From contig JAPXTJ010000001.1 of the NCBI GenBank assembly GCA_033812595.1, positions 13,306-77,305 of the forward strand: a stretch of DNA of 64,000 nt, in the 5' to 3' direction. The DNA is from Thermomicrobiales bacterium. GTDB lineage: Bacteria; Chloroflexota; Chloroflexia; Thermomicrobiales; UBA6265. How positions within the stretch are numbered: the stretch's first letter is position 1; the number at the start of each line of letters is the position of its first letter. Below, in pieces: positions 37,365 to 58,907 of this stretch. Under the pieces are notes generated by a model that was given only the letters and a program-made list of their open reading frames with translations, was not told where the DNA came from and searched no databases. The translations under genes and the position numbers were made by a program.

Positions 37365-38159
37365 TCAGGTTCCCGATTCCGGCAGCGGGATCAGCGAGTC
37401 CGCAATCGCCAGGGTCCGCTCCAGCGACAGGTTCGACTCGATCCGGTAGGTGATGCCGTCTACATGCCAGCTGAGGACGTTCGCTGCCAACCGCTGGCCT
37501 TCATCGCCGCCGGTCAGCGTGATCAGCTGGTGGGTGCCCGCGATCCAGAGCGCCTCGACACCGTTGACGCGGGTGACGTGCACCGTTCCGCCACCGGCGA
37601 GGCGCTTGCCCATCCAAACGTCGTCCGGAGTTGAGGGAAGCTGGGTCAGCAGCAGCCCGACGTCACTCTCCCCGATCGCGGGCAACGCCTCATCCGCCAG
37701 ATAGATCATCGAGACGACATTGGCGCCGCCCTCATCGGAATAGTGAACCTCGTCCGGCGGGCCGGGATCAGCGGGAACCATGAGCGGGTAGGGCGCGCGC
37801 TCGGCGGCGTCAAGAAGGCCCAAAGCGATACCCAGTTGGTCGCGAAGTGCCACCAGGTTTGTGACCGTCGGCTCATGAGAGTCGTTGAGCATGCGGATGC
37901 CCGGAATCTCAAGCCAGCGCCCAACCGCGTCACGGGTGGACGAGGAAACGCCGAGAACCATGGCGAGGAACAGCACAGCCGCGACCGAGGCGAATGCGAC
38001 AGGTCGCCACGGGAACGCCGGCGCCGGCTTCGGCGCGGAGTCGATCAACCGACGAGTCGACGCCACGAGATCGGGCATTGCGGGATAGGCGATCACTTCA
38101 CCCGCTTCCCGCAGGCGCATCTCCAATCCTCGGTCAGTTTCTGCCGTTCCGTCGCTCAT
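37365..38159 (-). CDS. Anti-sigma-factor-like membrane protein with DUF4367-like extracytoplasmic domain
   Basis: ATGA overlap with the sigma gene. One TM (VAFASVAAVLFLAMVLGV). C-terminal ...VLSWHVDGITYRIESNLSLERTLAIADSL. Confidence 0.65.
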   Translation of the reverse strand: MSDGTAETDRGLEMRLREAGEVIAYPAMPDLVASTRRLIDSAPKPAPAFPWRPVAFASVAAVLFLAMVLGVSSSTRDAVGRWLEIPGIRMLNDSHEPTVTNLVALRDQLGIALGLLDAAERAPYPLMVPADPGPPDEVHYSDEGGANVVSMIYLADEALPAIGESDVGLLLTQLPSTPDDVWMGKRLAGGGTVHVTRVNGVEALWIAGTHQLITLTGGDEGQRLAANVLSWHVDGITYRIESNLSLERTLAIADSLIPLPESGT

Positions 38160-38746
38160 CGGGTATCTGCTTCCTGCCTCGGTTCGAGCGCATCGCGTAA
38201 CCGGGCGAGCGCCCGCGAAAGGCGCGATTTCACCGTGCCCCGCGCCACTCCGAGTACAATCGCCATTTCGGCCTCATTCAGGTCGAGGAAATAGCGGAGT
38301 TCCAGTGCGATGCGATCCCGTTCCGGTAATTCGGCCAACGCCGCCAACAATTCCGCCTGCGCCTCGCTTCGCTCGATCTGAATCGCCGGCACGGCCTCCG
38401 GATCGACCGCTAGTTCGAGTAATTCAGGACCGAGCGCCGATTCTGGACGCCGACGGCGCGATCGGCCGAGATTCCGGGCTTCGTTGGCGACGATCGTCAG
38501 CAACCAGGGTCGAAATGCCCCCTCACCCGTGATGGGCGCTTTCCGGCGGCTCAGCGCCTGAAGACCCCGCTGCCGATCGAAACGCCCGAGATTTCGCCAC
38601 GCTTTGACGAACGCTTCCTGCGCGACCTCTTCGGCATCGGCGGCGTTGCGGGTGATCAGCCAGGCAGTTCGGAACGCAACGGTCTGATAGCGACGCACGA
38701 GTACCTCGAACGCCGCGCTCTCGCCCAGGCGGGCAACTTCAACCAA
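38156..38746 (-). CDS. ECF-subfamily RNA polymerase sigma factor
   Basis: Region 2: AFEVLVRRYQTVAFRTAWLITRNAADAEEVAQEAFVKAW. Region 4: RIALELRYFLDLNEAEMAIVLGVARGTVKSRLSRA. The track start is TTG 38746. An in-frame CTG at 38770 sits 5 nt after GGGGGAGG and would add LDEWDDSA. Confidence 0.85.
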   Translation of the reverse strand: MVEVARLGESAAFEVLVRRYQTVAFRTAWLITRNAADAEEVAQEAFVKAWRNLGRFDRQRGLQALSRRKAPITGEGAFRPWLLTIVANEARNLGRSRRRRPESALGPELLELAVDPEAVPAIQIERSEAQAELLAALAELPERDRIALELRYFLDLNEAEMAIVLGVARGTVKSRLSRALARLRDALEPRQEADTR

Positions 38747-41336: not shown

Positions 41337-42629
41337 TCAGGAGACCGCGGCCGGTCTCGCCCGCGTTCGTATCGCTTCGGCGGAGCGCGCCACGACATCG
41401 CCGGTCCGCTCCGCGACCAGGAAGGCCCGATCGCCAACCCGGGCCACCGAGGTGATCATATACCGATCCTCGGCGGCGCCGAGCAGCGCCAGCAGAATGC
41501 GGTCGGTCGTTTGCCGCCAGAACCAGGCCTGCTCGTAATCGAGGCTCTGGAGCGCGGTCCAGTCGTTCGGAATTTCGATCGCGCAGGCGGCGCCGTTGAG
41601 CGCGGCCGGGTCCTCGATCTGCTCAGAGCCGGCGCTGAGTCGCACGATGTCGGGACGCGCACCGAGATCGAGCAGGCGCTCCGATCGACTGCCGTTCACA
41701 ACGCGATCGCTGTCGATCAGCCAGGTCATGGAGAGCCGGGAGGCCGGCACCTGATTGAGTTCGTTCTGGAACGAGTACCAGTTCGGGTGAAATTCGAAGC
41801 AGACCGCCCCGAGCGACGCCACGTTGAGAATGGCGTTCGGCATCTGGAGGGGATCGACCGTCCAGCTGACGATATCGACATCCAGGCGTCGCGCCAGTTC
41901 CGCCTGGGCTCGTTTCAAGCGTGAGCCGACCCCCTGCCCCCGAATCTCGGGATCGGCGCCAAGCACCTGCGATTCGAGGCGAAGATCGGTCCGGAAGGCA
42001 TCGTGCCAGCCGTCAGGCAACCGGGAACCTTCGAAGCGGATGAAGCCGAACAGGAATCCGGCGACCTGTTCCTGCCAACGGGCGATCAACGAGGCGCCGG
42101 CGCCGAAACCGGTGGCGTGGATATCGCTGGGGTAGAGGAGATCGCTGCCGCTGCCCCAGATACGTCCCTGAAGTCGGCGCAATCGCTCCGCCTCAGCGAC
42201 ATTTGGCCGCCCGATTTCGACCTCACCCGGAATCATCGTGCAGCCCAGCATATCGAGCGGACCGCTCGGATCGAAAACGACGAAGTCGGCGGTTGGCATC
42301 AGCGCGCCGGCCAGAAGACCAGCGTCATGCTCACTGACAAGATCGCCGCCGGGCACCCGGTGCAGGCGCAGCGTGTAGACCTTCCGACCCGCATCGATGC
42401 CGCGTGGAAAGAGAAATCCGTAGCCGTTCACAGCCTGACCGTCGAAGTACTCGATCAGCCCGCCGCCGATTTCCGGGAAGGTCGATTTCAGGAAGTGAGG
42501 CGGGAAGAGGGCGGGGTTGTCCGGCGCGCCGAGGGCAGAGCGGATCGCATCGACCTCATCGGCCCAAAGCGTGGAATGCGTATCGTGCAATCGGGCCAGC
42601 GTCGCCATTCTCCACCCCACGGGCGGCAC
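41337..42629 (-). CDS. GNAT-superfamily acyltransferase-like protein (two-lobed, 430 aa)
   Basis: Acyl-CoA-binding-like segment LGADPEIRGQGVGSRLKRAQAELAR. First gene of the three-gene minus-strand cluster. Confidence 0.6.
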   Translation of the reverse strand: MPPVGWRMATLARLHDTHSTLWADEVDAIRSALGAPDNPALFPPHFLKSTFPEIGGGLIEYFDGQAVNGYGFLFPRGIDAGRKVYTLRLHRVPGGDLVSEHDAGLLAGALMPTADFVVFDPSGPLDMLGCTMIPGEVEIGRPNVAEAERLRRLQGRIWGSGSDLLYPSDIHATGFGAGASLIARWQEQVAGFLFGFIRFEGSRLPDGWHDAFRTDLRLESQVLGADPEIRGQGVGSRLKRAQAELARRLDVDIVSWTVDPLQMPNAILNVASLGAVCFEFHPNWYSFQNELNQVPASRLSMTWLIDSDRVVNGSRSERLLDLGARPDIVRLSAGSEQIEDPAALNGAACAIEIPNDWTALQSLDYEQAWFWRQTTDRILLALLGAAEDRYMITSVARVGDRAFLVAERTGDVVARSAEAIRTRARPAAVS

Positions 42630-42808
42630 CGGGTATGGATCGGCGCCACCAGCTGAAATCAGCGTTGGTGGCGATTATCCGGGAGGGCGATCCGGGTTTC
42701 GTGGGACGAAGGCGACCAATTTGTACTGGGAGCACAACGAATCTTGAATCGGTTCGTGGGTATACCCGAACGGACGGCGGTATCCGCCATTCCGGCGAGC
42801 GAATGCGT

Positions 42809-43189
42809 TTAACTCAAGCGGCGTTCCGCGAACGAAATGCAGTTGTTGTCCTGATCGAGGACCGAGAAATCACGCTCACCCCACGGCTGCTCGGCAAGCG
42901 GACCGTTCGGATGGACGACGCCGCTGCCCTGCATTTCAACGTAGAGGTCCTCGATATCCGAAACCACGATGCGGCACGAGGCCGAGCCAGCCAGAAAGGG
43001 TTCGGCGCCCGGTGTAAGAGGATCGTTTGCGGCCCAGAGATGGATGCGAACCTGATCGCGGATCAGGACCGCGAAGCCCGCGTCGGCGTGAACCAGCTCG
43101 AAGCCGAAACGCTTTTTGTAGAAGTCGGTCGCCGCGGCGATCTCCCGGACCGGCAACGCGGGAATAGAGCTTATGAGGGTCAAGTACAC
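42809..43189 (-). CDS. Bleomycin-resistance / glyoxalase (VOC) family protein
   Basis: IPALPVREIAAATDFYKKRFGFELVHADAGFAVLIRDQVRIHLW ... EQPWGERDFSVLDQDNNCISF. Start uncertain: GTG 43189 or TTG 43183 after GGAGGA. Confidence 0.75.
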   Translation of the reverse strand: MYLTLISSIPALPVREIAAATDFYKKRFGFELVHADAGFAVLIRDQVRIHLWAANDPLTPGAEPFLAGSASCRIVVSDIEDLYVEMQGSGVVHPNGPLAEQPWGERDFSVLDQDNNCISFAERRLS

Positions 43190-43373
43190 GATCCTCCGTG
43201 TTGGCGCTGAGCGTACAGCGCGCCGCCCAGAATCGCTTCTGTAAACACGATACACCACCCCGGCAAACCCGAATTCAGCGCCACGCTACCCTTTGGCCCC
43301 GTTCCGCGTTCCCTTTCTTAAGCGTCTCCCGGCTGGGAGGGCGCCGACGAATCACTGGGATCGGATCTCCACG

Positions 43374-45440
43374 ATGGGACATCGGGAAAAACTCGCAGGT
43401 GCAGGGGCCGCATTCGCATTGGTGATCGGCTACATCCTGGTCCGCTGTCTCGATATCGGGCTGTTCGTCACCACCGATGAACCCTTCTGGCTCGGCCGAT
43501 CCGCCAACTTTTTTCGGGCCATGCGGCAGGGCGACTACCAATACACCTTTCAGATGGCGCATCCCGGCGTCACGACCATGTGGGCCGGCGCGGCCAGTTT
43601 TCTCTGGTCGTTCCCGGAATACGCCGACCGGGTGACGCAGAACCTCACCTTCGTCTACGGCATCGACGGGGTGCTCCGCGATCTCGGGCAGGATCCGATG
43701 GAGATGCTGATCCGGGCCCGTTTCGCCAAGATCGTGGTCTCCAGCCTGGCTTTTGCCGCCTCACTCTTCTACCTGAACCGGCTCTTCGGCCGGGCCGTGA
43801 TGGTTCTGACTGGTGCCCTGATCGCGCTCGATCCGTTCGTTTCCGGGCTCGATTCGCTCCTCCATGTCGATGGGCTTTTCGCGATCTTCGCGTTCGCGGC
43901 CATTCTGGCGCTGGCGGACGCGGCGCGAGCGAATCGCCACGCGATCGCGCCCTGGATCGTTGCCGGTGTGCTGGCGTTCGCCTGGATGGCTCGCGCCACC
44001 GGACTCGTCCTCATGCTCGGAGCGGCGGTCGCTTCGATCGCGCCGCTCTTTCACCGGCGCAATCGAATCGGCCCGCTATCGCTGCGCCACCGGCTCGAAT
44101 CCCCGGCCTTTTCGCTGGTTCTCTGGTTGATCGGGGGAATCGCGGCCTCGTTCCTGCTCCTGCCGGCGCTCTGGGTCGATCCCTTCGGCACCTTCGATGC
44201 CATCTGGGATTGGAGCACCCAGGCGGCGAACGAGGGACACGAGCGGCCGATCTTCTTCCGGGGCGAGGTGATCAGCGGCGATCCGGGTTGGCTCTTCTAC
44301 CCGGTGACGCTGATCTGGCGCCTGACCCCGATCGTGCTGTTCGGCGCGCTGGCGTTACTCATCCTCGCCATTCCACGCACGACGCGCCGGCTGATTCCGG
44401 ACGCGCACCGGCGTTCGCTGCTGCTCATAGCCGGCTTCGGCGTCGCGTACCTGATGGCGATGTCATTCGGAGCGAAGAAATTCGATCGCTACATCCTGCC
44501 GGTTTACCCCATCGTTATGCTGATGGCGGGGTACGGATCAGTGCTGTTGGCACGAGCCGTAGCCTGCCGCCGACCTAATCTCCGCCGGTTTGCGCTGCCC
44601 GCGGTCACGGCGGCGGTACTGCTGGGGCAAACGGTTTCGCTCTTTGCCGCCACGCCATATCGTCTCGACTATTTCTCGCCGTTGCTCGGTGGTCTGGACC
44701 GGGCTCAATCTCACATTCAGGTCGGGTGGGGAGAGGGCGCGCAGGAGGCGGTCGACTTCATCGTGCAGGACGCGGACGGCGCGGACGTTTTGGTGCAGGT
44801 TTCGTCCGTCTGGCCGGTGTTCTCGTATCTCGCACCAACATCGATTCGTTTCGAGCGGTTCGGATTGGGCACGCCCGCCGGTTGGTACGAGACCGACTAC
44901 GTCGTGAGCGGCATTCAGGAGTGGCAGCGTGACCTCTCGCCCTCCTACCGGACCATGCGTGAAAACGGCTTCGAACCGGTTCACGTGGTGGAGGTGCACG
45001 GCGTGCCGTTCTTCATGGTCTACGCGCCCCGTCAGCTGCCACTGCCAGCCGGACTGATCGACGCAAGCAGTTGCGACGCCAGCTTCGGCGGTGGCTTGCG
45101 GCTCGTGCAAGTGATCGGGCGGGAGGGGAGTGTCGATTTCTACTTCCTGACAACGGGAGAACTACCGGAGAATCTCGAAATCTCGATCGCGCTTCAGCAG
45201 GAGGTCGATTCGACGCCGCGGTCCGCCTGGTCGGCGTGGCAGCCGGCCGGGATCGGCTACGTGTCGCGGGTCAGCGTGCCCGATCCACGGTCGGGCGAGA
45301 GCCCCGAGCTCTCGAACTACGAGTTGCTGATTCAGGTGCGGAATGTCGCCAGTGGTGAATTGCTGCCGGTCGACTCCACTACACTTGGGTCCGATGGTGT
45401 GACGGCAAGCACCAACTCCGAATGCTTCTACCAGCCATGA
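43374..45440 (+). CDS. Polytopic glycosyltransferase, family 39 / ArnT-PMT-like
   Basis: ATG 43374. TTDEPFWLGRSANFF (the DE motif in the first loop is typical of GT-C enzymes), about 12 predicted TM segments, and a C-terminal soluble domain of about 220 aa. Confidence 0.7.
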   Translation: MGHREKLAGAGAAFALVIGYILVRCLDIGLFVTTDEPFWLGRSANFFRAMRQGDYQYTFQMAHPGVTTMWAGAASFLWSFPEYADRVTQNLTFVYGIDGVLRDLGQDPMEMLIRARFAKIVVSSLAFAASLFYLNRLFGRAVMVLTGALIALDPFVSGLDSLLHVDGLFAIFAFAAILALADAARANRHAIAPWIVAGVLAFAWMARATGLVLMLGAAVASIAPLFHRRNRIGPLSLRHRLESPAFSLVLWLIGGIAASFLLLPALWVDPFGTFDAIWDWSTQAANEGHERPIFFRGEVISGDPGWLFYPVTLIWRLTPIVLFGALALLILAIPRTTRRLIPDAHRRSLLLIAGFGVAYLMAMSFGAKKFDRYILPVYPIVMLMAGYGSVLLARAVACRRPNLRRFALPAVTAAVLLGQTVSLFAATPYRLDYFSPLLGGLDRAQSHIQVGWGEGAQEAVDFIVQDADGADVLVQVSSVWPVFSYLAPTSIRFERFGLGTPAGWYETDYVVSGIQEWQRDLSPSYRTMRENGFEPVHVVEVHGVPFFMVYAPRQLPLPAGLIDASSCDASFGGGLRLVQVIGREGSVDFYFLTTGELPENLEISIALQQEVDSTPRSAWSAWQPAGIGYVSRVSVPDPRSGESPELSNYELLIQVRNVASGELLPVDSTTLGSDGVTASTNSECFYQP

Positions 45441-45477: not shown

Positions 45478-46110
45478 GTGGGGGAGCGGCGCCCGGCGGT
45501 TCGGCCCCTTGGAGCAGCGTTGGATCGAGATTCCCGCCACGACAGGAGCGACGATGATGTCGTGCGCCGCGCGCTCCGCAACCGGGCCGATTTCGCGCCG
45601 CTCTACGAGCGACACGCCGCCGCGATCTACGGCTACTGCTACAACCACACCCGCGACCCGGAACTGGCCAACGATCTCGCGGCCCAGATCTTCCTCCGCG
45701 CCATTGAACGGTTGGGGCAGTACCAGCCACGCGCTCACGCCAGTTTCCGCAGCTGGCTCTTCGCGATTGCACGAAATATCGTCATCGATCACTGGCGGCG
45801 ATTCAGACCGACCTGGCCGATTGAACCCTGGCAAATCGCCGCGATTGCGGATGAGCCCGGTCCGGAGGAGATCACGCTCCACCGGGCGCGGATGGCGGAT
45901 CTGCTCGATGCCCTCGATCAGCTGCCTGAACGACAGCGGACGATCGTGGAATTCCGGTTAGCCGGCATGACGACCCCTGAGATCGCGAGCGCGCTCGGCC
46001 TGACCGAATCGGCGGTGAAATCGGCCCAAACCCGGGCATACCGGCACCTGCGCGAACTCCTCGGAGTTCAAAACGAGAGCGACTATGGACGACTTCCCGC
46101 GGCCGATTAA
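45478..46110 (+). CDS. ECF-subfamily RNA polymerase sigma factor
   Basis: FAPLYERHAAAIYGYCYNHTRDPELANDLAAQIFLRAIE ... QRTIVEFRLAGMTTPEIASALGLTESAVKSAQTRA. TTG 45520 (GGAG 5 nt upstream) is an alternative start. Confidence 0.85.
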   Translation: MGERRPAVRPLGAALDRDSRHDRSDDDVVRRALRNRADFAPLYERHAAAIYGYCYNHTRDPELANDLAAQIFLRAIERLGQYQPRAHASFRSWLFAIARNIVIDHWRRFRPTWPIEPWQIAAIADEPGPEEITLHRARMADLLDALDQLPERQRTIVEFRLAGMTTPEIASALGLTESAVKSAQTRAYRHLRELLGVQNESDYGRLPAAD

Positions 46111-47212
46111 CCCGAACGATCCGACGCCGGACAGCGATTTCGCCGATCGTTTCGATCGAGCGTTTCATCAAGCGGCGGCTGAAGATCCGGGCGCCGGCGC
46201 ACTCGATCCCAACCTGTGGGCGCGCATCCAGGCCGAAGCCGGCATCGATCAGACCACCTCGGCGAATGCATCAGCGGGCGCGCCAAAGGCCGGTCCGACC
46301 TCCGTCGACACCGCCGGAACGCTCCACGGTCGAGGTCGTTACACCGCACCAGCAGCGTGGTGGCGGTGGGGGTTGGCCGTAGTGCTGCTGACGGCGCTCG
46401 CCAGCACACTTGTGCTTTCCCTCGACAATGACGAACCGAACCGCAATCCGACCAGTGGGGTAGTGAGCGCCCCGCTGGTGATGTCTCCAATTGCGGAGCT
46501 GTCCGATACCTGTGATGTGGAGCCACTCACCGTCGCCGAAGTTCTGGAGATCGTCACGAGTGTTCCACCGCCAGGTGGTGAACCGTACCCTCACACGGAC
46601 ACTTGGTTGCCGGACACGAATGGCGCCGCTGAGTTTGCATCCGGCACGCGGAGCGTCGTCACGCCAGACATCACTATGTACCGGGCAATTCAACACGCCG
46701 TCGATAGGTATCTCGTCTGTCAGGAGACCGGCACCAACTTCCAGGTTTGGGCGCTTGAATCGGCGCCCGAGGTGCAGCGTCAGGTCACCCAGGTGCTGCT
46801 CTATGAAAATGGCGACGCATTCGGTCCGGAAATCGACGAAGCGATGCTCATCGCCGAAATCGAGCGACTCGGACCCCAACTGCGTCGGGAAACCTGGCAC
46901 GAGGGCATCGGCGGCACCTACCTGACCCTTGTGATCGAGGATGAAGATAAGCAGCTTCGCGCCAATCAGGTCCCCGAGGCCGCTTTCATTACGACAGACG
47001 GCAACGTGGCCGGCGACACCTACGCCTGGATCGGACTCGAGCTTCAGTCGAAGGCGGACGGAGTAGTCATCATTCGCCATGGCGCCGGCACTGAACCGCA
47101 CGAAAGCAACACACCGCGCGAGCAGGATTTGCCGGTTGTCGGCACCCTGATTCTTCGTTTTGACGACTCAGCCAACGCCTGGAAGGTGGAGTGGTTCATT
47201 CCGTCCATCTAA
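46085..47212 (+). CDS. Single-pass membrane protein, putative cognate anti-sigma factor
   Basis: Overlaps the sigma gene by 26 nt. TM WWRWGLAVVLLTALASTLVLS. Extracytoplasmic domain of about 260 aa with no recognised family. Confidence 0.55.
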   Translation: MDDFPRPINPNDPTPDSDFADRFDRAFHQAAAEDPGAGALDPNLWARIQAEAGIDQTTSANASAGAPKAGPTSVDTAGTLHGRGRYTAPAAWWRWGLAVVLLTALASTLVLSLDNDEPNRNPTSGVVSAPLVMSPIAELSDTCDVEPLTVAEVLEIVTSVPPPGGEPYPHTDTWLPDTNGAAEFASGTRSVVTPDITMYRAIQHAVDRYLVCQETGTNFQVWALESAPEVQRQVTQVLLYENGDAFGPEIDEAMLIAEIERLGPQLRRETWHEGIGGTYLTLVIEDEDKQLRANQVPEAAFITTDGNVAGDTYAWIGLELQSKADGVVIIRHGAGTEPHESNTPREQDLPVVGTLILRFDDSANAWKVEWFIPSI

Positions 47213-47394
47213 GCTAGATTCTACTCTTGACCATCGAACATAAATCTGTGCCAACGGGACTGAAGCATAGGTGTGCGCAAACGCACAGCGAACCGATGCT
47301 ACCCGACACATCGACCGGGCGAAAAGCGGCGTAGCTTCAACTTACCCCGGACGTTCCAGGGATGGAAGTCGCAACCCGAGCCAAGGAGCATGGA

Positions 47395-47961
47395 ATGACG
47401 TCGACAGAGAACACCAAGACCTGGGTTTATTCCGCGATGCCAATCACGGCGGCGGTCAACGAGGTGCAGCTGGCCCTCTCCAGACTCAAGAACGATTCTC
47501 AGATACAGAATGCCGGCATCCAATTCTCCAAAGCTGTCCTGACCTTCGTCGTCTCCAACTCGTTCGAGGCGGAGGCCGAAGTCGGCATAAAGGTCGTTAC
47601 CGCGGGTGGCTCGATCGGCCGACAGAGTACAAGCACCATCGTCGCAACACTCGAAGAACCTGGCTTGGAGGCGGTCGAGCTCACAGAACGCGAGTACACA
47701 AACGAATCGATTCAAGAGTTGGTTCGCCAACTCGCAGCCATTGTCCTGCTAGGTGGCGACAAGCCATACCCGCTGGCCTTCAGCGAAGGCAGCGTAGAGC
47801 TTGAACTCATAGTGACTGCGGAGGGCCACCTGAAAGTGGCTACCGAGGGCCTTGTTGTCACGGTGCTTCGGGCGCTCGGACTCTTCAATCTGTCCGTACA
47901 AATGTCCGTGGAATTGCTCAAGACGTCCAGCATTAAACTGCACTACACCCGGGCCACCTAG
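47395..47961 (+). CDS. Tandem trypco2-like domain protein (hypothetical)
   Basis: ATG 47395 with an AAGGAG RBS. The two halves each show a helix followed by 'x(I/L)xFxxxxxxLxFxVxxxxxxxAxxGIKVV..GG..G....T..I..TL' (AGIQFSKAVLTFVVSNSFEAEAEVGIKVVTAGGSIGRQSTSTIVATLE; PLAFSEGSVELELIVTAEGHLKV...SSIKLHY). Low-GC segment. Confidence 0.55.
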   Translation: MTSTENTKTWVYSAMPITAAVNEVQLALSRLKNDSQIQNAGIQFSKAVLTFVVSNSFEAEAEVGIKVVTAGGSIGRQSTSTIVATLEEPGLEAVELTEREYTNESIQELVRQLAAIVLLGGDKPYPLAFSEGSVELELIVTAEGHLKVATEGLVVTVLRALGLFNLSVQMSVELLKTSSIKLHYTRAT

Positions 47962-47978
47962 CACCACTCCGGAGGCCG

Positions 47979-48014
47979 GCCAAGGGCGACAGAGCTCTGG
48001 GAGTCGCCCTTGGC
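47979..48014 (+). terminator. Stem-loop after the trypco2-like gene
   Basis: 12-bp arms gccaagggcgac / gtcgcccttggc with a 12-nt loop. No clear T-tract. Confidence 0.4.
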
Positions 48015-48125
48015 TGGGCCACACTGTAGGCAAAGAACTGACGTAGTTTGGTCTTTGCGGATAAGTGCAGTTGTGCGCAAAGCGTGCAGCGGAGAACAAT
48101 GGCCTCAGTGACCCGAAAAGCCGAT

Positions 48126-48506
48126 TCAGGCCGATTCCATGCGGAATTCCGGACGACCGAACGGCGAGCCGCTCTCGGGCGGACCGTACGCGTTGACGCC
48201 GTAGACGCCGGGTGCGGTGCCAAGCCAGGCCAATAGAACGATCCAACCGAGCGGCACGAGGACGAGTAACAGCCAGAGTCCGCTGCGGCCGAGATCGTGC
48301 ATCCGTTTGACGCTCGCCGCGAACAACACCCAGAGACTGATCGGCGTGACCATGATCGCCATCAGCACGCCTTCCTGCACACCGAGTGTCACCGAGCCGA
48401 CCAGAAACGCCAGCCACGGCAACGCCACCACGTTGGCTACAAGCGCCCACCACGCGCCACGACCGATCCGCCCGGAGGCTGTAACAATATTCCAGATGCT
48501 CATCAC
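48126..48506 (-). CDS. DUF805-domain inner-membrane protein
   Basis: GRIGRGAWW ... SVKRMHDLGRSGLW ... NAYGPPE is the DUF805 signature. Confidence 0.8.
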   Translation of the reverse strand: MMSIWNIVTASGRIGRGAWWALVANVVALPWLAFLVGSVTLGVQEGVLMAIMVTPISLWVLFAASVKRMHDLGRSGLWLLLVLVPLGWIVLLAWLGTAPGVYGVNAYGPPESGSPFGRPEFRMESA

Positions 48507-48880
48507 CGTGTTACTTTCTGAACCTGTGCGAGTGCTCCTGACCTTTGGCCGAACGGTGAACCGCTTTCCGGTTCACCATATTTATTGGATCCTCGCTTGC
48601 CCGGTATCAGTCCAAACCAGATAACCGCCACGGGCGGGATTAGCCAGAAAACGATCCAGCCGCCACTCCAGCCGTGATCATGGCATCGCTTCACCGAGGT
48701 GACAATCACAATCCGTAGCAGAACCGCCACCAGGACGAGGCTCACCGCGGAGGCAACGATATTGTCCAGGTTCATCAGGCCCGCGATGCCGAACCAGGCA
48801 AGATGGGTCAACAGATTGATCTTCCACCAGGTCAGACGACCGGTCCGTCCATTTGCTGACCAAAGTCTTGCGATGTCCAT
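48503..48880 (-). CDS. DUF805-domain inner-membrane protein (tandem paralogue)
   Basis: GRTGRLTWW ... SVKRCHDHGWSGGW ... NKYGEPE. 4-nt overlap with the downstream paralogue. Confidence 0.8.
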   Translation of the reverse strand: MDIARLWSANGRTGRLTWWKINLLTHLAWFGIAGLMNLDNIVASAVSLVLVAVLLRIVIVTSVKRCHDHGWSGGWIVFWLIPPVAVIWFGLIPGKRGSNKYGEPESGSPFGQRSGALAQVQKVTR

Positions 48881-48951
48881 CCCGTCACCTGCCAGCGCCC
48901 GCTAGACTACCGGTTGAAATGGCCCGTTCGCCCACCGGATTCATCATACTC

Positions 48952-50511
48952 ATGCCCAGCCTGTCAGAACCAGAACTCGTGCAACGAATGCTCGATCCGG
49001 CAGCTTATCCGTGGCGGGTCGACTCGGTCCGTCACCTCGAAACACACATCTCGCACCTCTTCTTCGCCGGCGATCGGGTCGTGAAGCTGAAACGGCCGGT
49101 CGACTACGGATTCGCCGATCTCACCACGCTCGAATCACGCGAACAAGCCTGTCGCGACGAAGTCCGCCTCAACCGGCGATTGACCGACGACATCTACCTG
49201 GAGGCGCTGCCGATCGTCCGGCATGATGGCGGTCTCCGCCTCGGCGGCGACGGACCGCCCCTCGATTGGGCGACCGTGATGCGCCGGTTTCCGGCCGAAT
49301 CGAGTCTCGATCACGTGCTGGCGAACGAGGCCGCGCCGTCCGATCTGGCCGCCTGCCTCGCCGAACGGTTGATTCCGTTTCACGCCTCCATCGCAGGATG
49401 TCCGGGTGATCCGAATGAACAGGCGGATCAGGCCGAGCGAATTCTCCGTGAGAATCTCGAGCAAATTGCCGCCATCGACACCTACGCGATCCTCCCGCAG
49501 GAATTCGCGCTGATCCGGGATCTGATCGCCGAATTTCTCGATCGCCACCCCGATCGCATCCGCCAGCGCGCCGAATCAGGAATGATCCGGGAAGGACACG
49601 GCGATCTCAAGTGCGAGCACGTGCTGCTCGATCCGCCCGGTTCGCTCCAGATCTTCGACTGCGTTGAATTCAGCCTGGAGATTCGTTGCGCCGATATCGC
49701 CAGCGACCTCGCCTTCCTGCTCCTCGATCTGAAGCGGCTCGGCGCGACGGGGGTCGCTGATGAGCTGGTGGATCGCTACCGCGCCGCCGGCCTCGATCTT
49801 CCCGACGAGGAGCTCATCGTCTACCAGTTGCACCGAGGGCTCGTGAAGGTCAAGACCACCGCGCTCACCATCGCATCGTCCGAACAACCGCATCCCGAAC
49901 TCGCCCACGAGATCGCCACCTGGCTCCATCACACCTTCCAGGCGGGATTCGAGCTTCGGCCGGTGGTGCTGGCGATGACCGGATTCAGCGGCAGCGGCAA
50001 GTCGGCGGTCGCGCGGGCAATCGCCGCGCTCACAGGCGCCACGATCCACTCCACGGACGCGATTCGATCGAAAAACGCGACCTCATCCTCTGCGCGTTAC
50101 GCCCCGGACGCACGCCTTGCCAACTACCACGCGCTTGTCGAACGCGCCGCGGTCGATCTCGGGCAACACAGCCCGGTCATCCTCGACGGCGCGTTCCTCC
50201 GAACCGAGGAGCGAGAACTGGCCGCCGAATTCGCTGCCGCGCACTACGCACCGATCCTTTTCATCGAGGTCACCGCCAACAGGGACGTGATGGAACGTCG
50301 CATCCTCGCACGCGGTCGGGGCGAATCGCCATCATTCGCTTCGGAAGCAACGCTCGACGTGCTGGAGGCCCAGCTGTCGGCTCCCAGGGCGCCCTTCCCT
50401 GCCGCCGCGACCGTTGTCCGGATCGAGAATTCATCCGATGCCCCGGCCTCACTCGATCCGCTGATCGAAGCGCTGCACGCGGCCGGTTACCTTCGCAGCC
50501 GGCTCGACTGA
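48952..50511 (+). CDS. Bifunctional-type protein: aminoglycoside-phosphotransferase-like kinase domain plus C-terminal P-loop (AAA_33-like) kinase domain
   Basis: N-terminal HLETHISHLFFAGDRVVKLKRPV...; kinase catalytic region IREGHGDLKCEHVLL ... IFDCVEF; Walker A MTGFSGSGKSAVA. ATG 48919 is an alternative start. Confidence 0.75.
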   Translation: MPSLSEPELVQRMLDPAAYPWRVDSVRHLETHISHLFFAGDRVVKLKRPVDYGFADLTTLESREQACRDEVRLNRRLTDDIYLEALPIVRHDGGLRLGGDGPPLDWATVMRRFPAESSLDHVLANEAAPSDLAACLAERLIPFHASIAGCPGDPNEQADQAERILRENLEQIAAIDTYAILPQEFALIRDLIAEFLDRHPDRIRQRAESGMIREGHGDLKCEHVLLDPPGSLQIFDCVEFSLEIRCADIASDLAFLLLDLKRLGATGVADELVDRYRAAGLDLPDEELIVYQLHRGLVKVKTTALTIASSEQPHPELAHEIATWLHHTFQAGFELRPVVLAMTGFSGSGKSAVARAIAALTGATIHSTDAIRSKNATSSSARYAPDARLANYHALVERAAVDLGQHSPVILDGAFLRTEERELAAEFAAAHYAPILFIEVTANRDVMERRILARGRGESPSFASEATLDVLEAQLSAPRAPFPAAATVVRIENSSDAPASLDPLIEALHAAGYLRSRLD

Positions 50512-54608: not shown

Positions 54609-56252
54609 CTACGGGAACGCGATCGAGTTCATAAGCGGGGTGAGCGCGTCGAGCAGGTCGTCCTCGGCGTCGATCGGCGCTTCAGCGACGATCTGCACCA
54701 GGTATTCCCCTTCCGGATCCTCGTGGCAGGCGACCACGATCGACCACTCCTCGGCATCATCGTCCTCGTAAACGCCGAGCACGGCGAACATTTCGCCCCC
54801 GTCGTTCTCATCATCAACCTGGATCTCGAAATCGAAGTCCGCGACGAAGTCCTCGACGCACGACTGCGCATCGGCGCGGCGCGGCATTTCGAACGAGCTC
54901 ACGTCGACGAAGAGGTCGCCCTCACCTTCGAGCTGCAGGGTGTCGACATCGTTGCGGGAACGATCGCGCACGATTTCCCAGACGCTCTCGTCGACTTCGA
55001 GTTCGAAGCCCCAGGTCGGGCTCTCGTAGACGGTGCCGCTGACCGGATCGGTGTCTTCATCGTCCGGCTCCGGGGTGACATCCTCGTCCGGCTCGTCGAC
55101 GACATCTTCATCATCCGTGTCCACGTCGAGCGGCTCGCCGCCCTGGATGTTGACGGTCGTGAGCACGTCCTGCGTTGCCGCGAACGCATCCTCGAAGTCG
55201 TCCAGGCCCGTCACCAGCGTGGCGACGAAGACGCCGGCGCCTTGCGGCAGCGCGCGGCACTCCACGTAGGTCGCGCTTTCTTCGCCGCGGCTGTTCTCAA
55301 AGGTGTAGGCCGCCCAGGCAACGCCGCGTGAGGTTCCGGCCAGTTCATCGCCATTGGCGTCTTCCAACGGCGCGGGATCCGCATCGTCCGGAATCGCTTC
55401 GTCGACGGCCGATTCGATGCAATCAGAAGCCCGGGTGATGGTGCTGTACGACTCGAGCCAGAGGCGCCCCGCCGGCTCGATGAGATCGAGGATGAGAACG
55501 TCTCGACCCTCATCGTCTTCGGCTTCCTGCTCGTCGTTGACCTCCCAGACATCTTCATCGAACGCCAGCGCGACGCCGAAGTTCGGGGAGGAGTAGACAT
55601 TGCCTTCCAGACCGTCGCCGGTTCGAACCGGGCCATCATCATCGTCCGGATCCGGGGTCGGAGCGGGATCATCATCACCGGTGTCTTCGCCGAAGACCGC
55701 CGGGAAGATCGGATCGCCGTCGATCGTGATCATCGTGCCGACCAGGCCAGCCGCGATCAACGAGCGATCGGGCGCCGACTTGACCGACGTGACGATGAAC
55801 GCGCCGTCGATCGGGCGGAACTCGGTCAATTCCTCGAGCGGCGTCCCGTCATCCCCAAACTCGTAGTTGAAGATCACAACGCCGGCTTCGGGAAGCGACG
55901 ATTCCATTGGCGTGGCTTCCACGTTCGAGTAGGTGCTTGAATCGTTCAGCAGCCCTTCGTACGCGGTCATCATCGACTCGGCGCTTCGATTCGTGTCGAA
56001 GCCCCAGATATCAACCCAAATGCCGAGCTCGTCGTGCACGATGCGCAGCTGATCGGATGTCTCGAGTGAGTTTGTGAATCCGTCGACTACCGACCAGTCA
56101 TCGGTCCATTCCACTTCGTAACCGTAGAGGGGGCTTTCGTACGTTGTCGCACTGGTGACCCCCGCCTGGGCGGCAGCCAGAACCGGCCCCGCCGCGAAGA
56201 GCACCATCAGCGCCGCCACGAGCGCACCGGTCATCCTGAAGATTCGTTGCAT
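54609..56252 (-). CDS. Secreted three-module acidic protein of unknown function
   Basis: Signal peptide MQRIFRMTGALVAALMVLFAAGPVLAAAQA. Three modules of about 150 aa each begin Y(E/S)SPxxG(Y/F/V)x(V/L)x(W/F/V)(T/D)(D/E)xW and are separated by D/E/P-rich linkers. Confidence 0.75.
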   Translation of the reverse strand: MQRIFRMTGALVAALMVLFAAGPVLAAAQAGVTSATTYESPLYGYEVEWTDDWSVVDGFTNSLETSDQLRIVHDELGIWVDIWGFDTNRSAESMMTAYEGLLNDSSTYSNVEATPMESSLPEAGVVIFNYEFGDDGTPLEELTEFRPIDGAFIVTSVKSAPDRSLIAAGLVGTMITIDGDPIFPAVFGEDTGDDDPAPTPDPDDDDGPVRTGDGLEGNVYSSPNFGVALAFDEDVWEVNDEQEAEDDEGRDVLILDLIEPAGRLWLESYSTITRASDCIESAVDEAIPDDADPAPLEDANGDELAGTSRGVAWAAYTFENSRGEESATYVECRALPQGAGVFVATLVTGLDDFEDAFAATQDVLTTVNIQGGEPLDVDTDDEDVVDEPDEDVTPEPDDEDTDPVSGTVYESPTWGFELEVDESVWEIVRDRSRNDVDTLQLEGEGDLFVDVSSFEMPRRADAQSCVEDFVADFDFEIQVDDENDGGEMFAVLGVYEDDDAEEWSIVVACHEDPEGEYLVQIVAEAPIDAEDDLLDALTPLMNSIAFP

Positions 56253-56569
56253 GTCCGTCTTTCCTCCTCCATCACCGCCTGCATTGCCGGTGAGCCTTCA
56301 TTTGGGTCGACGAAACCACTCCCTCGTCGTCCACTCCGGATCGCGCCGTCGCATACCGCGCCATCCCCGAATCAGCCCCGGTGACCGGACGTTTCGGGAG
56401 ATCCTCGACCGTTACCAGTCTCGCGGATTTCGCCGGAAACGCAAGTCCTTTTACCCCCGGGAAACGGGCATTTATCGCGTCGCCCGCCGATTTGGGTGGG
56501 AACACCCACTCTTCGCATCGAGGTATCGCACCTCCTGACCGCAGCTCCCGGGCCACGACCCGGGGACCA

Positions 56570-57847
56570 CTATCCAAGTCGAATCGATCCGATCATCGGC
56601 TGGATGGCTTCGTACGCATCATCGAACGAATCGATGACGGCGATCATGGAAAAAACGAGTACGCCCTTGGCGCCGGGAAGCGCCCGGCACTCCACATACC
56701 CGCCTACTTCAGTGGGGTCCTCATCCTCGAGCTCGAGCGTATACGCGTACGCCGCCCAGACGCGCCCTTGCGTCGATCCCGAAATCGGTTTGCCATCGGC
56801 GTCAGTCAGGAGTTCATCGCTTCCGGGCGAAATGCTCGCTTCGGAGAGGGCGACATCGATGCAGGCGCCGGCGCGGCCGTTGAAGCCATCGAAGACTTCC
56901 ACCACCACATAAGCCGACAAGTCGTTGTGGAACAGGATGATGCCGTCACGGCCGAAGTTGTCTTCCGCCACCAGCTCCGATTCAACCCGCCAGTCGGAGC
57001 GGTCGTACCTGAACCCTGCGCCGGGGAACTGCGTGGAGTCCCAGTTTCGCTGGTCGAAGGAATCGCCGCGGCTGTCCTGCGGCACGGGTGTGGGCGTGGG
57101 TCGCGGTTCGTTGCCGGACGACTGGAACACCTCGACGCAGGTCGCGGCCGGCGAGGCATCCGTGGTGTCAGTGTCTGTCTTGTCAGTTTTGTTCGACGAA
57201 CTCGACGCTTCGGTCTTGTCGCCCGGTTTCGAGGTGGTGGAGCCGCCCGATGAGCCGGTCTCCTCCTCCCCGCAAATAGGCAACGGCACGAGCAGCGGCA
57301 CATCGTTCACGGTGATGTCGTCGTTCGCGCGCGTCTTGACCGCTTCAAGGTCGTCGAGCAGGCCGAGCACCACCACCACCATCGTGGCGCCGGCGATCGG
57401 TTGGGATTGCACATAGCCGGCCGCCTCGATGTCCGTGCCCGAGAGCTGGAACGTGAAAACGAGGGAGGGAGGCGATTGATCAGTCGCGTCCTCGATAACC
57501 GTGTATTCGGGCAGGCGGGAATAAGTTTGCAGCGCCGCCTGGATGTACTCCTCACCCGTCCGGAAGCTGCGTTGCGATTGCATCTCGATCAGCACCGCGT
57601 CGTCGCCATTGGCGGAAATCAGCCCGAGCACATCGCGCCGGACCTCGATCGAGGAGTTCTCCCGATCGACCTGCCAGTCGTCGGTCCACTCGATCTGCGT
57701 CTTGTACTTCGGGCTAGTGAACTCCGTCTCACCGATCGGAGACTCCTGCGCGATGGCGATCGCCGGCAGCGTCAGGACCACGAGGAGCAACGCGATCACC
57801 AGTCGCGCCAGCCGAATCACCCCACCCGATCGATCGATCCGAATCAC
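56570..57847 (-). CDS. Secreted/anchored two-module paralogue of 54609..56252
   Basis: N-terminal hydrophobic segment LARLVIALLLVVLTLPAIAIAQ. Modules start FTSPKYKTQIEWTDDWQV and FRYDRSDWRV. Shares VWAAYAYT...YVECRALPGAKGV with its neighbour (VAWAAYTF...YVECRALPQGAGV). Confidence 0.75.
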   Translation of the reverse strand: MIRIDRSGGVIRLARLVIALLLVVLTLPAIAIAQESPIGETEFTSPKYKTQIEWTDDWQVDRENSSIEVRRDVLGLISANGDDAVLIEMQSQRSFRTGEEYIQAALQTYSRLPEYTVIEDATDQSPPSLVFTFQLSGTDIEAAGYVQSQPIAGATMVVVVLGLLDDLEAVKTRANDDITVNDVPLLVPLPICGEEETGSSGGSTTSKPGDKTEASSSSNKTDKTDTDTTDASPAATCVEVFQSSGNEPRPTPTPVPQDSRGDSFDQRNWDSTQFPGAGFRYDRSDWRVESELVAEDNFGRDGIILFHNDLSAYVVVEVFDGFNGRAGACIDVALSEASISPGSDELLTDADGKPISGSTQGRVWAAYAYTLELEDEDPTEVGGYVECRALPGAKGVLVFSMIAVIDSFDDAYEAIQPMIGSIRLG

Positions 57848-57947
57848 CTGTTCATCCCCTGGCAGACCGGCCAGGAGCGTCTGTCCGGCCGGATTGATCT
57901 GAAAGCGGTTCGTGTTTCATCCGATAATAGCCCACCGCATCGCGCTA

Positions 57948-58907
57948 TTACTTGTCAGAACGTGGACCAAACGCTCTTGGTTCCGAAGTAATTGGGGCCG
58001 GGCCGAGCAGCCTGAGCCAAAGCGCCCGGGCGGCCCAGGCCCGTGCAGGCCGCCACGCTTCCGCGAGCGAATCGAGGGTTTTCAGTGTTAACTCGGGGCG
58101 ATCGTACTCTCTTCTGGCCGCGCGTAGCAGCGCGACATCACCGCTGACGTGGGCGTCATCACTGCCAATTCCCCAAAGCAGCGCCGCCGCCGCACTCCAC
58201 GGCCCGATCATCGGCAAGGCGATCAATCGCCTGGCCACCCCCTCCGGATCGGCGTGGGCCGCCTGGTCGTCGGGCACATCGCCATCAGCCACGTGACGTG
58301 CGACCTTCACGATCCCTTCGGCTCGCCGCCAGGTCAGCCCGGTCGCGCGCAATCGCTCGACCGGTGTCTCCGCCAGTTGCTCCGCGCTCGGGAACGGGAG
58401 AAAGCGCCGGCCGCCGAACTCAAGTCCGGTGGAGTGAATCTCGGCGACCCGCCGCTCCATGACGGCGCCGGCCTGCACGGTGACCCCTTGGCCGATGATC
58501 ACGGTCAGCAATCCCTGATGCAGCGATCCGTGGGCGTACGGGCGCAAACCCGGAAAGGCACGCATCGCTTCGGCGACCACCGGATCGTCGATTACGGGCG
58601 GCGTCCGTCGCCAGCCGAGCGAGCGCGTCATCCAGTCGGCCGCCTCTTCCGGTTCCGCAAACCCGGAAACCACCAGCGTGGCCTGATCGGGCTGAAGCGT
58701 CCGAATCAGGCCGAGCTCACCGCTCTCGCCGAGCCGCCGCACCTGGACGAACTCGCCGCCGATCCAATCAACCGACGGCCAACGCCCCTGGCCCCAGGCG
58801 ACCGGCGCGACCGTGGTCGCCAGATCCAGCCCGTTCGCGGGGAACTCGAAAACAACGTCCGCAATGGGCGGCTGATTCATCCCGGCGTCGCGCAAGGCAT
58901 TCTCCAA
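57948..58907 (-). CDS. DNA-3-methyladenine glycosylase II (AlkA-like, HhH-GPD superfamily)
   Basis: HhH-GPD region LIALPMIGPWSAAAALLWGIGSDDAHVSGDVALLRAA, with the catalytic Asp in GDVAL. ATG 58880 is an alternative start. Confidence 0.78.
   Translation of the reverse strand: MENALRDAGMNQPPIADVVFEFPANGLDLATTVAPVAWGQGRWPSVDWIGGEFVQVRRLGESGELGLIRTLQPDQATLVVSGFAEPEEAADWMTRSLGWRRTPPVIDDPVVAEAMRAFPGLRPYAHGSLHQGLLTVIIGQGVTVQAGAVMERRVAEIHSTGLEFGGRRFLPFPSAEQLAETPVERLRATGLTWRRAEGIVKVARHVADGDVPDDQAAHADPEGVARRLIALPMIGPWSAAAALLWGIGSDDAHVSGDVALLRAARREYDRPELTLKTLDSLAEAWRPARAWAARALWLRLLGPAPITSEPRAFGPRSDK

Follow-up and report, generated by a model that had tools for sequence, protein, structure and literature searches.

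A rare two-domain protein with a Trypco2/Pepco-like domain, encoded beside a candidate Xer-type site in a Thermomicrobiales genome

Trypco1 and Trypco2 were named by Kaur et al. 2020 as gene products that co-occur with trypsin-bearing vWA-MoxR-associated proteins (PMC7159879), and a 2025 preprint treats the Trypco proteins as 'Pepco' (Evans et al., bioRxiv 10.1101/2025.11.14.688446). Trypco2/Pepco genes lie next to the gene of a trypsin- or caspase-like peptidase, which in most cases forms part of a fusion with a sensor (VMAP, STAND/Avs, and others) (PMC7159879; 10.1101/2025.11.14.688446). A Streptomyces Pepco of 117 amino acids (aa) forms constitutive β-barrels of 9-10 subunits that resist sodium dodecyl sulphate (SDS), requires its amphipathic N-terminal helix, and becomes a membrane pore once a protease removes its C-terminal tail (10.1101/2025.11.14.688446). 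The trypsin domain of the adjacent Avs4 cuts after a conserved Ile, removing a 2 kDa tail rich in charged residues and Pro, and a Pepco truncated exactly at this Ile kills E. coli (10.1101/2025.11.14.688446). Here we describe a gene at positions 47395-47961 of a 64,000-nucleotide (nt) stretch of a Thermomicrobiales bacterium (contig JAPXTJ010000001.1, positions 13,306 to 77,305 of the forward strand; hereafter the window), whose product combines a remote Trypco2/Pepco-type domain with a second, family-specific domain and which is followed by a motif resembling the recombination sites of the Xer system.

The core site of the Xer/dif system consists of two 11-bp arms with partial dyad symmetry and a 6-8-bp centre (PMC5357621); in M. 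leprae, dif reads TTTGCCGATAA / GCAACA / TTATGTCAAGT (Kono et al. 2011 supplement, PMC3025954). Integrative mobile elements exploiting Xer (IMEX) include CTX-phi, TLC-phi, and the gonococcal island, and the Acinetobacter pdif modules are comparable (PMC5357621, PMC7399989). Our analysis points to a horizontally acquired, stand-alone latent pore-former of the Pepco type that would lie beside an Xer-type site; for this reading as a whole, we see an even chance of being correct, and its parts are weighed separately below.

The 188-aa product has an identical entry at NCBI, the hypothetical protein IT334_12265 from a Thermomicrobiales metagenome-assembled genome (MAG). Among 5.8 billion clustered proteins, the only matches were the protein itself (on about 10 contigs) and one 63%-identical protein, encoded at the locus that we call L001. 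An exhaustive HMMER search of 1.84 billion representatives gave 10 matches at E<=1e-3, nine of which are 171-199 aa long and aligned essentially end to end. The tenth, P0009, was rejected as a spurious repetitive open reading frame (ORF) of 629 aa, and a profile search added one further member, P0012. Because the matches are few and near full-length, the family is, judged from its sequences, extremely rare and patchily distributed, with a conserved two-part architecture. The gene itself is real and separately translated. The good AAGGAG ribosome-binding site that a preliminary description of this DNA had reported is in place (Table 1), and the L001 homologue likewise has AAGGAG ahead of its start codon. 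An alternative in-frame ATG at 47362 is possible, but the deposited protein and the homologues start at the equivalent of 47395.

The N-terminal domain matches the Trypco2 family PF19631. The window protein scores 19.5 bits (E=0.0012), and the match was found in all 11 family members (10 homologues and the window protein), always in the N-terminal half. The homologues score 18.5-31.5 bits; P0011 (31.5 bits) alone exceeds the cut-off, with the others at 18.5-23.9 bits, so that the score is under the threshold in 10 of the 11 members. The alignments nevertheless extend over most of the profile (78 positions), covering 1-78, 2-76, or 5-78 in nine of the 10 homologues and 28-74 in the shortest, and the window protein spans positions 7-69, which amounts to a whole domain. 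One homologue, P0004, also matches the Pepco family PF24393. The helix at residues 17-33 of the window protein has a hydrophobic moment of 0.41, compared with 0.20 +/- 0.11 for random segments. Across the family the values are 0.29-0.61, and the helix is amphipathic in every member but P0005 (0.29, inside the random range). Based on these comparisons, the N-terminal ~75 residues are best taken as a genuine but remote Trypco2/Pepco-type domain, with a homology that is credible at the level of the family.

The end of this domain is also reminiscent of Pepco. L86, the last residue of its final strand, is nearly invariant in the family and is followed by a Pro within 3 residues in 10 of the 11 members (6 residues in P0011), and 18-45% of the linker residues are charged across the family. 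The linker thus has a Leu-x-x-Pro pattern, and the family seems to possess both the core of Pepco and a tail-like segment, the tail leading into a further domain. This C-terminal domain of ~85 residues is conserved within the family and, on the evidence of our searches, is new and has no detectable relatives: none of the C-terminal halves (n=10) matched PF19631, even at E<=10, or gave a convincing match to another Pfam family, and a profile of the C-terminal halves searched against the 5.8 billion proteins retrieved family members alone.

The preliminary description had read the protein as two Trypco2-like repeats and, together with its flanks, as a tandem duplication carried on a ~0.8-kb insertion whose ends are marked by similar hairpin-forming 19-20-mers. 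We regard this explanation as quite improbable. In both halves an amphipathic helix precedes strands in collinear order, which would be compatible with an ancient duplication, and hhalign pairs their last strands (STxTLxITL with TSSITLNF, P=0.008). However, hhalign gave a probability of only 4.9% over 23 columns for N-terminal against C-terminal halves, and the score of 18.4 compares with 16.3 and 15.9 for reversed-sequence controls, while the C-terminal halves remained without a single PF19631 match (0/10). Searching each half against PF19631, as had been proposed, therefore gave a split answer: the N-terminal half has a match that is sub-threshold here but consistent across the family, the C-terminal half has none, and the claim of two Trypco2-like repeats is not supported.

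Set against Trypco2/Pepco as described, the family is alike in its N-terminal ~75 residues, which in every member align with the profile over most or all of its length, in its amphipathic N-terminal helix followed by beta strands, and in a last strand that ends in a conserved hydrophobic residue before a Pro- and charge-rich segment, as at the Pepco cleavage site and tail. It is unlike Pepco in size (~190 aa versus ~80-120 aa), in the conserved ~85-residue C-terminal domain that stands where Pepco has a ~2 kDa disordered tail, and in its surroundings, since at eight loci it never adjoins a trypsin or caspase protease, STAND/Avs, or vWA-MoxR. No trypsin-like or caspase protease, STAND, or vWA-MoxR gene was found at 35-60 kb in the window, and no protease or NTPase adjoins the gene at seven further family loci (L001-L003, L013-L016). 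That the domain stands alone, as stated in the preliminary description, is thus true at 8/8 loci and applies to the whole family. The sole hint of a protease near the family is a 127-aa ORF directly downstream of P0006 (locus L002, 10818-11204, minus strand). It matches Peptidase_C4, a chymotrypsin-fold cysteine protease family, with E=0.0033 and 17.1 bits against a cut-off of 27, and is too short for a complete protease.

Downstream of the gene lies a conserved motif, CTTTGCGGATAAG-N4-GTTGTGCG (25 nt, 48053-48077). The same order of gene and then motif is found in three family members, namely the window protein, its homologue at L001 (63% identical), and P0005 at L015 (30% identical), where positions 1258-1285 hold a close variant of the motif (31.8 bits with the motif matrix). 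The motif follows the stop codon by 92 nt in the window, 155 nt in L001, and 52 nt in L015, and the genes flanking the three units are mutually unrelated. An exact-pattern scan of the JGI/ENA metagenomes recovered 10 further contigs with the motif, for which we roughly estimate a chance expectation of <1. The surroundings differ from contig to contig and consist mostly of housekeeping genes (FtsH, PanB, peptidase E, spermidine-synthase-like, and others), and none of these contigs carries a family gene. No further copy was found in the 64-kb window or in ~700 kb of other loci. Searches with tblastn against plasmids and phages and scans of viral contigs yielded nothing convincing; the viral contig scans gave two motif matches, both attributable to chance, and a relaxed-scan match in viral contigs was rejected as chance, lying only inside a phage portal gene.

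The 13-bp arms of the motif, CTTTGCGGATAAG and the reverse-complemented CTTTGCGCACAAC, form imperfect inverted repeats (10/13 bases). The arms are fixed, and the inner 4 nt vary by locus (TGCA, CTAC, CAAG, CATG, CAGC, ATTG, CGGT). The window copy thereby shows the arm arrangement and dyad symmetry of dif (Table 1), and its left arm agrees with the M. leprae XerC arm at 10/11 bases. We built a dif weight matrix from 31 published sites (Kono et al. 2011) and ran it over 771 kb of loci. The top scores in the 771 kb were obtained at L017:16443 (19.0 bits), L001 (17.5), L063 (16.4), and a Syntrophobacteraceae MAG (14.6), and the next best unrelated match reached 7.2 bits. Taken together, the downstream motif has, in our estimation, a slightly better than even chance of being an Xer-type recombination site.

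The high-scoring sites in other genomes deserve mention in their own right. The site at L017 (16443-16470, minus strand; TTTGCGGATAA / TGTTCA / TTATCTGCACT) belongs to the Thermomicrobiales MAG JTS-RE29, lies 5 kb from a homologue of the kinase gene found near the window gene, and is a candidate dif for Thermomicrobiales. The Syntrophobacteraceae site (L045, 12935-12962, minus strand; GTAGTTTATAAGCTACATAATGTCAAGA; 14.6 bits) is near that genome's copy of the kinase gene; it is probably the dif of that genome, and the proximity to the kinase happenstance.

In comparison with chromosomal dif (PMC3025954, PMC5357621), the resemblance lies in the 28-bp core with two 11-bp arms, partial dyad symmetry, and a 6-bp centre that varies by lineage, and in a left arm nearly identical to actinobacterial XerC arms (TTTGCCGATAA). 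Moreover, the window site, as seen on this MAG fragment, is single-copy and intergenic, and it lies between convergent genes at a shift in GC skew. Convergent genes surround the site in four loci (window, L001, L015, and L063). The skew has a change point at 45.5-48.5 kb of the window (t=4.5, permutation p=0.005) and is higher on the left of the motif in 5/5 loci with sequence on both sides. The differences concern the right arm TTGTGCGCAAA, which departs strongly from the canonical XerD arm TTATGTCAAGT, the inner palindrome, which reads ATAA...TTGT and not ATAA...TTAT, and the lack in the window of a sign change in skew and of a flip in gene orientation.

Several of these observations weigh against the Xer reading of the motif and, with it, against our reading of the locus. 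With the matrix of published, actinobacterial dif sites, the window copy reaches -11.7 bits. Its right arm agrees with the canonical XerD arm at only 5-6/11 bases and ranks 5426th in the window, where the left arm is itself only the 3rd best match. The skew goes from -0.019 left of the change point to -0.069 right of it, a shift in magnitude and not in sign, and the fraction of genes on the plus strand (0.41 left and 0.63 right of 48 kb) shows no flip. The motif is also absent from five other family loci. It is possible that the motif is instead the binding site of another conserved DNA-binding protein, or a short repeat that coincidentally looks like dif, and that its proximity to the gene reflects shared regulation; that several copies are followed by TTGA(C/T), resembling a -35 box, is also consistent with this. 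We nevertheless find this explanation somewhat unlikely, given the partial dyad symmetry with a variable central spacer, the occurrence as a single copy, the position between convergent housekeeping genes, the top matrix scores of the L001, L063, and L017 versions, the clustering of contig breaks at the site (see below), and the absence of an Rfam match, both in the window region and at 11 motif loci.

Other identities for the motif were tried and rejected. An RNA hairpin does not fit, as the CTTTGCG/CGCAAAG pairing of the window is not kept in other copies. Promoter readings with sigma-70, sigma-28, sigma-54, or extracytoplasmic function (ECF)-type spacing, assessed by eye, gave no consistent fit. 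The end of a coding region was likewise discarded, the motif being in frame in L062 and not in the window.

The behaviour of metagenome assemblies at the site bears directly on the recombination-site reading. Five Logan contigs from five runs, all 100% identical to the window, have scattered left ends (41905-44861), and their right ends all fall at 48077-48089, three of them exactly at 48089. Contigs arriving from the right, also 100% identical to the window, begin at 48054, 48022, 48145, and 48381; the Logan contigs that end at 48077-48089 or begin at 48022 and 48054 are L005-L009, L011, and L012. In 8 of the 12 other motif contigs, only 36-314 nt separate the motif from a contig end (combined p=0.006 by Fisher's method; 0.016 with one contig per lineage). 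Strain divergence to the right of the site was rejected as the cause of the breaks, as no difference from the window exists in the right-hand contigs of these samples (100% identity). The breaks would be accounted for if the assembly graph branched around 48054-48089, and these observations suggest that the ~36 nt of 48054-48089 are present in more than one sequence context in those samples. The second context was not recovered; the breaks are as expected of a site that undergoes recombination or carries variable insertions.

No such behaviour is seen on the other side of the gene, where the left of the two flanking strings is spanned by all contigs without a break. The preliminary description had suggested that the two strings could mark the boundaries of an insertion, and it named chance-level similarity as an outcome that would speak against this. 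Both occur where it placed them, and both contain TGTGCGCAAA. However, TGTGCGCAAA has 2 matches in the window at <=1 mismatch against 3.1 expected, and several further repeats of 12-13 nt, attributable to chance, occur within the same 1.7 kb. The similarity is therefore not above chance for the 10-mer alone, whereas the right flank does belong to a non-random larger motif.

The left flank is of a different nature. It holds the palindrome TGTGC-N6-GCACA, which has 1 match in the window against 0.06 expected and which is kept upstream of the 63%-identical homologue (L001 2446-2461). Folding confirmed the 6-bp hairpin described earlier, with -10.5 kcal/mol in the window and -21.5 kcal/mol (z -5.2) in L001, where the palindrome lies 3' of a separate strong terminator of the preceding gene. 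Because its spacing from the start codon is nearly unchanged in the closest homologue (123 nt before the ATG in the window, 127 nt in L001), the left flank looks regulatory, that is, like a conserved cis element of the gene (operator or 5' hairpin) and not an insertion scar.

The idea of matched insertion boundaries could thus not be upheld, the left boundary being a regulatory-like palindrome and the right one a separate dif-like motif that is also found without the gene. The proposal of a bounded ~0.8-kb insertion does draw on the segment common to the window and L001, the ends of which fall roughly at the two brackets, and on flanks that are alike within each genome (TGTGCGCAAA twice in the window, TGTGCGA twice in L001). 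It is countered by the chance frequency of the 10-mer match, by the asymmetry of flanks of which only the left is palindromic and the right belongs to the larger motif, and by the contigs that cross the left bracket unbroken.

A further possibility on the left is a single Xer arm. The string GTGTGCGCAAA is the only other match to TGTGCGCAAA at <=1 mismatch in the 64 kb, and its occurrence within 800 nt on the same strand has p ~0.03 by rough estimate. At the position expected for a partner arm beside it, only 3/11 bases match. It may be a half-site or may reflect chance.

Compared with IMEX and pdif modules, the locus is alike in having a small cargo gene beside a dif-like site with a divergent XerD-side arm, as in difGGI and the TLC attP, in the association of the same cargo with the same site in unrelated neighbourhoods, and in assemblies that break at the site, which a junction variable within populations would lead one to expect. 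It is unlike them in that the window has one full site, the left being a single arm (10/11, partner position 3/11), in that the window unit showed neither an excised form nor an empty site and no functions of replication or of phages, and in that this unit measures only ~0.8 kb and five family members are not beside such a site. One could imagine that gene and site form a minimal Xer-dependent module (a single-gene IMEX or 'dif module') with a self-contained Pepco-type toxin, in which the fused C-terminal domain would replace tail and protease and which would serve addiction or abortive infection at a dimer-resolution site. We consider this wider proposal highly doubtful. The full IMEX reading is weak because of the one full site, the single left arm, and the five members that lie elsewhere, one of them near a phage integrase.

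Table 1. Features of the gene and its flanks in the window (positions are those of the window).
Feature	Position	Strand	Remarks
GTGTGCGCAAA, candidate half-site	47271-47281	+	10/11 bases of the dif-like right arm, same orientation
Palindrome TGTGC-N6-GCACA (left bracket of the preliminary description, 47272-47290)	47272-47287	+	6-bp hairpin, possible operator
Ribosome-binding site AAGGAG	47383-47388	+	6 nt before the ATG at 47395
Gene, 188 aa, member of a small two-domain family	47395-47961	+	Identical database entry, conserved homologues
Trypco2/Pepco-like domain, ~residues 17-88	47443-47658	+	PF19631 match; amphipathic helix, then beta strands
Interdomain linker, residues 86-104, LEEPGLEAVELTEREYTNE	47650-47706	+	Conserved Leu then Pro, charge-rich
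Family-specific C-terminal domain, residues 104-188	47704-47958	+	Amphipathic helix, then strands; no known relatives
Stem-loop, putative terminator	47974-48020	+	Starts 13 nt after the stop codon, without U-tract
dif-like 28-bp site TTTGCGGATAA / GTGCAG / TTGTGCGCAAA	48054-48081	+	11-6-11 architecture
Right bracket of the preliminary description	48072-48091	+	Overlaps the dif-like right arm and its 3' flank

The gene lies in an interval of low GC. The GC content of 47213-48125 is 56.8%, compared with a mean of 63.6% (standard deviation 2.4%) for 913-nt segments of the window, only 1.5% of which are as low. The three 60-nt lines singled out in the preliminary description measure 48.3%, 45.0%, and 55.0%, and its counts were correct; its statement that the neighbouring genes exceed 65% was not, as they measure 55.8-64.9% (61.7% for 46085-47212, 63.8% and 55.8% for two DUF805 genes, and 64-65% for others). 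The low-GC islet is real but shallow; because of these values in the neighbouring genes, the dip is modest and not sharply bounded. The GC content at third codon positions (GC3) is 0.69 in the gene and 0.75-0.85 in most genes of the window, and two adjacent genes are similarly low (0.70 and 0.62). A deeper islet occurs elsewhere in the window, with 55.2% GC over 27-28 kb. It contains the gene with the lowest GC3 in the window (0.56; 26709-27644, minus strand), whose 310-aa product has an HNH endonuclease domain (PF01844, E=6.6e-8) and which is probably mobile or acquired.

The loci of the family have mutually unrelated neighbours. The part of the window from 35 to 60 kb holds genes for two ECF sigma factors (one at 45478-46110, accompanied by a putative anti-sigma factor) and, on the strand opposite to the gene, for two DUF805 proteins. 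Also encoded there are a glycosyltransferase-like membrane protein, an AAA_33 kinase, MscS, a methyltransferase, an aldolase, an M20 peptidase, and a solute-binding protein. The neighbours are a SulP transporter and membrane proteins at L001, a peroxidase, DUF6603, and a GmrSD_N/HIT protein at L002, DUF2165 and DUF6582 at L003, a phage integrase, a nuclease, and prophage-like genes at L014, and a PopD-like protein and a sulfatase fragment at L015. At L014 (138-1304 and 9000-14574), P0004 is encoded 2.7 kb from the phage-integrase gene and near small helix-turn-helix genes and a PhageMetallopep gene, which suggests a prophage or integrative-element setting. Because of its low GC and GC3, the patchy distribution of an extremely rare family, and the unrelated neighbours in each genome, the gene looks horizontally acquired.

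Alternatively, the gene could be an ordinary lineage-specific one, the last of the ECF sigma/anti-sigma operon (45478-47212), coding for example for an envelope-stress protein, with flanks that are plain regulatory and terminator sequences. It shares its strand with the sigma and putative anti-sigma genes and begins 182 nt downstream of them, a weak hairpin alone lying in between, and no sigma-70-type promoter comparable to that of P0005 was found upstream of it. All contigs shown for this species have an identical arrangement, and the neighbouring anti-sigma and second DUF805 (DUF805b) genes also have lowish GC. We judge this alternative unlikely, as neither the L001 nor the L015 homologue has a sigma or anti-sigma neighbour, the former follows a strong terminator, the latter has its own promoter, and the extreme rarity and scattered contexts of the family (phage integrase and prophage-like genes; GmrSD/HIT genes) argue against a housekeeping role. 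The promoter upstream of P0005 (L015 515-555) is a clean one of the sigma-70 type, TTGACA-N17-TAAGCT.

Transcription of the window gene probably ends at the strong stem-loop 3' of its stop codon, which, going by its predicted folding (-37 kcal/mol, z -3.1; arms 47976-47990 and 48003-48017, 93% complementary), would act as a terminator despite the absent U-tract. A consensus scan of 47000-48300 called no promoter or terminator, including at this stem-loop (47974-48020).

Some neighbouring genes of the window may be of interest independently of the gene. The ECF sigma gene at 45478-46110 overlaps a 375-aa ORF (46085-47212) by 26 nt. This ORF has no Pfam, NCBIfam, or PHROGs match and one predicted membrane segment, from which we infer an anti-sigma factor of an undescribed type. 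A second ECF sigma gene (38156-38746, minus strand) is followed by a 263-aa ORF without a match (region 37365-38746), so that two ECF sigma genes occur in 10 kb. The tandem DUF805 membrane-protein genes (48126-48506 and 48503-48880, minus strand) are 36% identical, have overlapping stop and start codons, and are marked at their 3' coding ends by a 32-nt direct repeat, 75% identical (48157-48188 and 48549-48580). The kinase gene at 48853-50511 (plus strand) encodes 552 aa with a C-terminal AAA_33 domain and a long N-terminal region. Its homologues, 33-43% identical, are found at 43 loci in Thermomicrobiales, Rubrobacter, Binatia, 'Deltaproteobacteria', and Planctomycetota MAGs; even the closest of these genomes are distant from the window (43% identity in the kinase), and the 43 loci have no other neighbour in common with it. 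Finally, three consecutive ORFs at 54609-58907 (minus strand; 546, 424, and 318 aa) have a coding-like GC3 of 0.76-0.79 and no Pfam match at E<=1e-4.

Returning to the gene as a horizontally acquired Pepco-type protein, its product would, by homology with Pepco, be a latent membrane-permeabilising toxin. The C-terminal domain may replace the short inhibitory tail of Pepco as an enlarged inhibitory appendage, and activation could occur by cleavage at the conserved linker, through a protease that the host encodes at another locus or that an invader brings in. As an Xer-type site, the downstream motif would serve this Chloroflexota lineage as its chromosomal dif or else as a dif-like site of attachment, and the gene would have arrived by horizontal transfer, possibly through Xer-dependent integration next to the site.

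In addition to the points raised above for the motif, several results count against this proposal. The window protein is under the gathering threshold of PF19631 (19.5 versus 24.2 bits). Searches of the family in PADLOC, PHROGs, and PDB sequences gave no match, and NCBIfam gave one chance-level match (P0004) far under the cut-off. Two AlphaFold2 monomer models were poor, with a predicted local distance difference test (pLDDT) of 34.9 from a 2-sequence alignment and 43.5 from an 11-sequence alignment. Pepco effectors are defined by an adjacent protease, of which there is none here, and because of this the activation step is pure inference. No second full site flanks the gene, and Xer-mediated insertion is for that reason not demonstrated.

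From a biological perspective, should none of these readings hold, what remains is a rare hypothetical gene of slightly low GC. The recurrent placement of the gene beside a candidate dif-like site was unexpected; the reading of the motif as a recombination site is suggestive and unproven. Only recently have experiments revealed Pepco/Trypco2 proteins as immune effectors that form pores when licensed by a protease, and it is the pairing with a protease that defines them. The family described here keeps the effector core and adds a new C-terminal domain, without a linked protease. If its members are toxic, such effectors could be licensed in trans, by proteases of the host or the invader, or restrained by a built-in domain. 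The Chloroflexi covered by Kono et al. 2011 are three Dehalococcoides only (PMC3025954), a set that does not extend to Thermomicrobiales-type members. If the reading of the motif is true, the site would provide a candidate dif for Thermomicrobiales-type Chloroflexota and a hint that Xer sites gather small cargo genes in Chloroflexota, as they do in Vibrio, Neisseria, and Acinetobacter.

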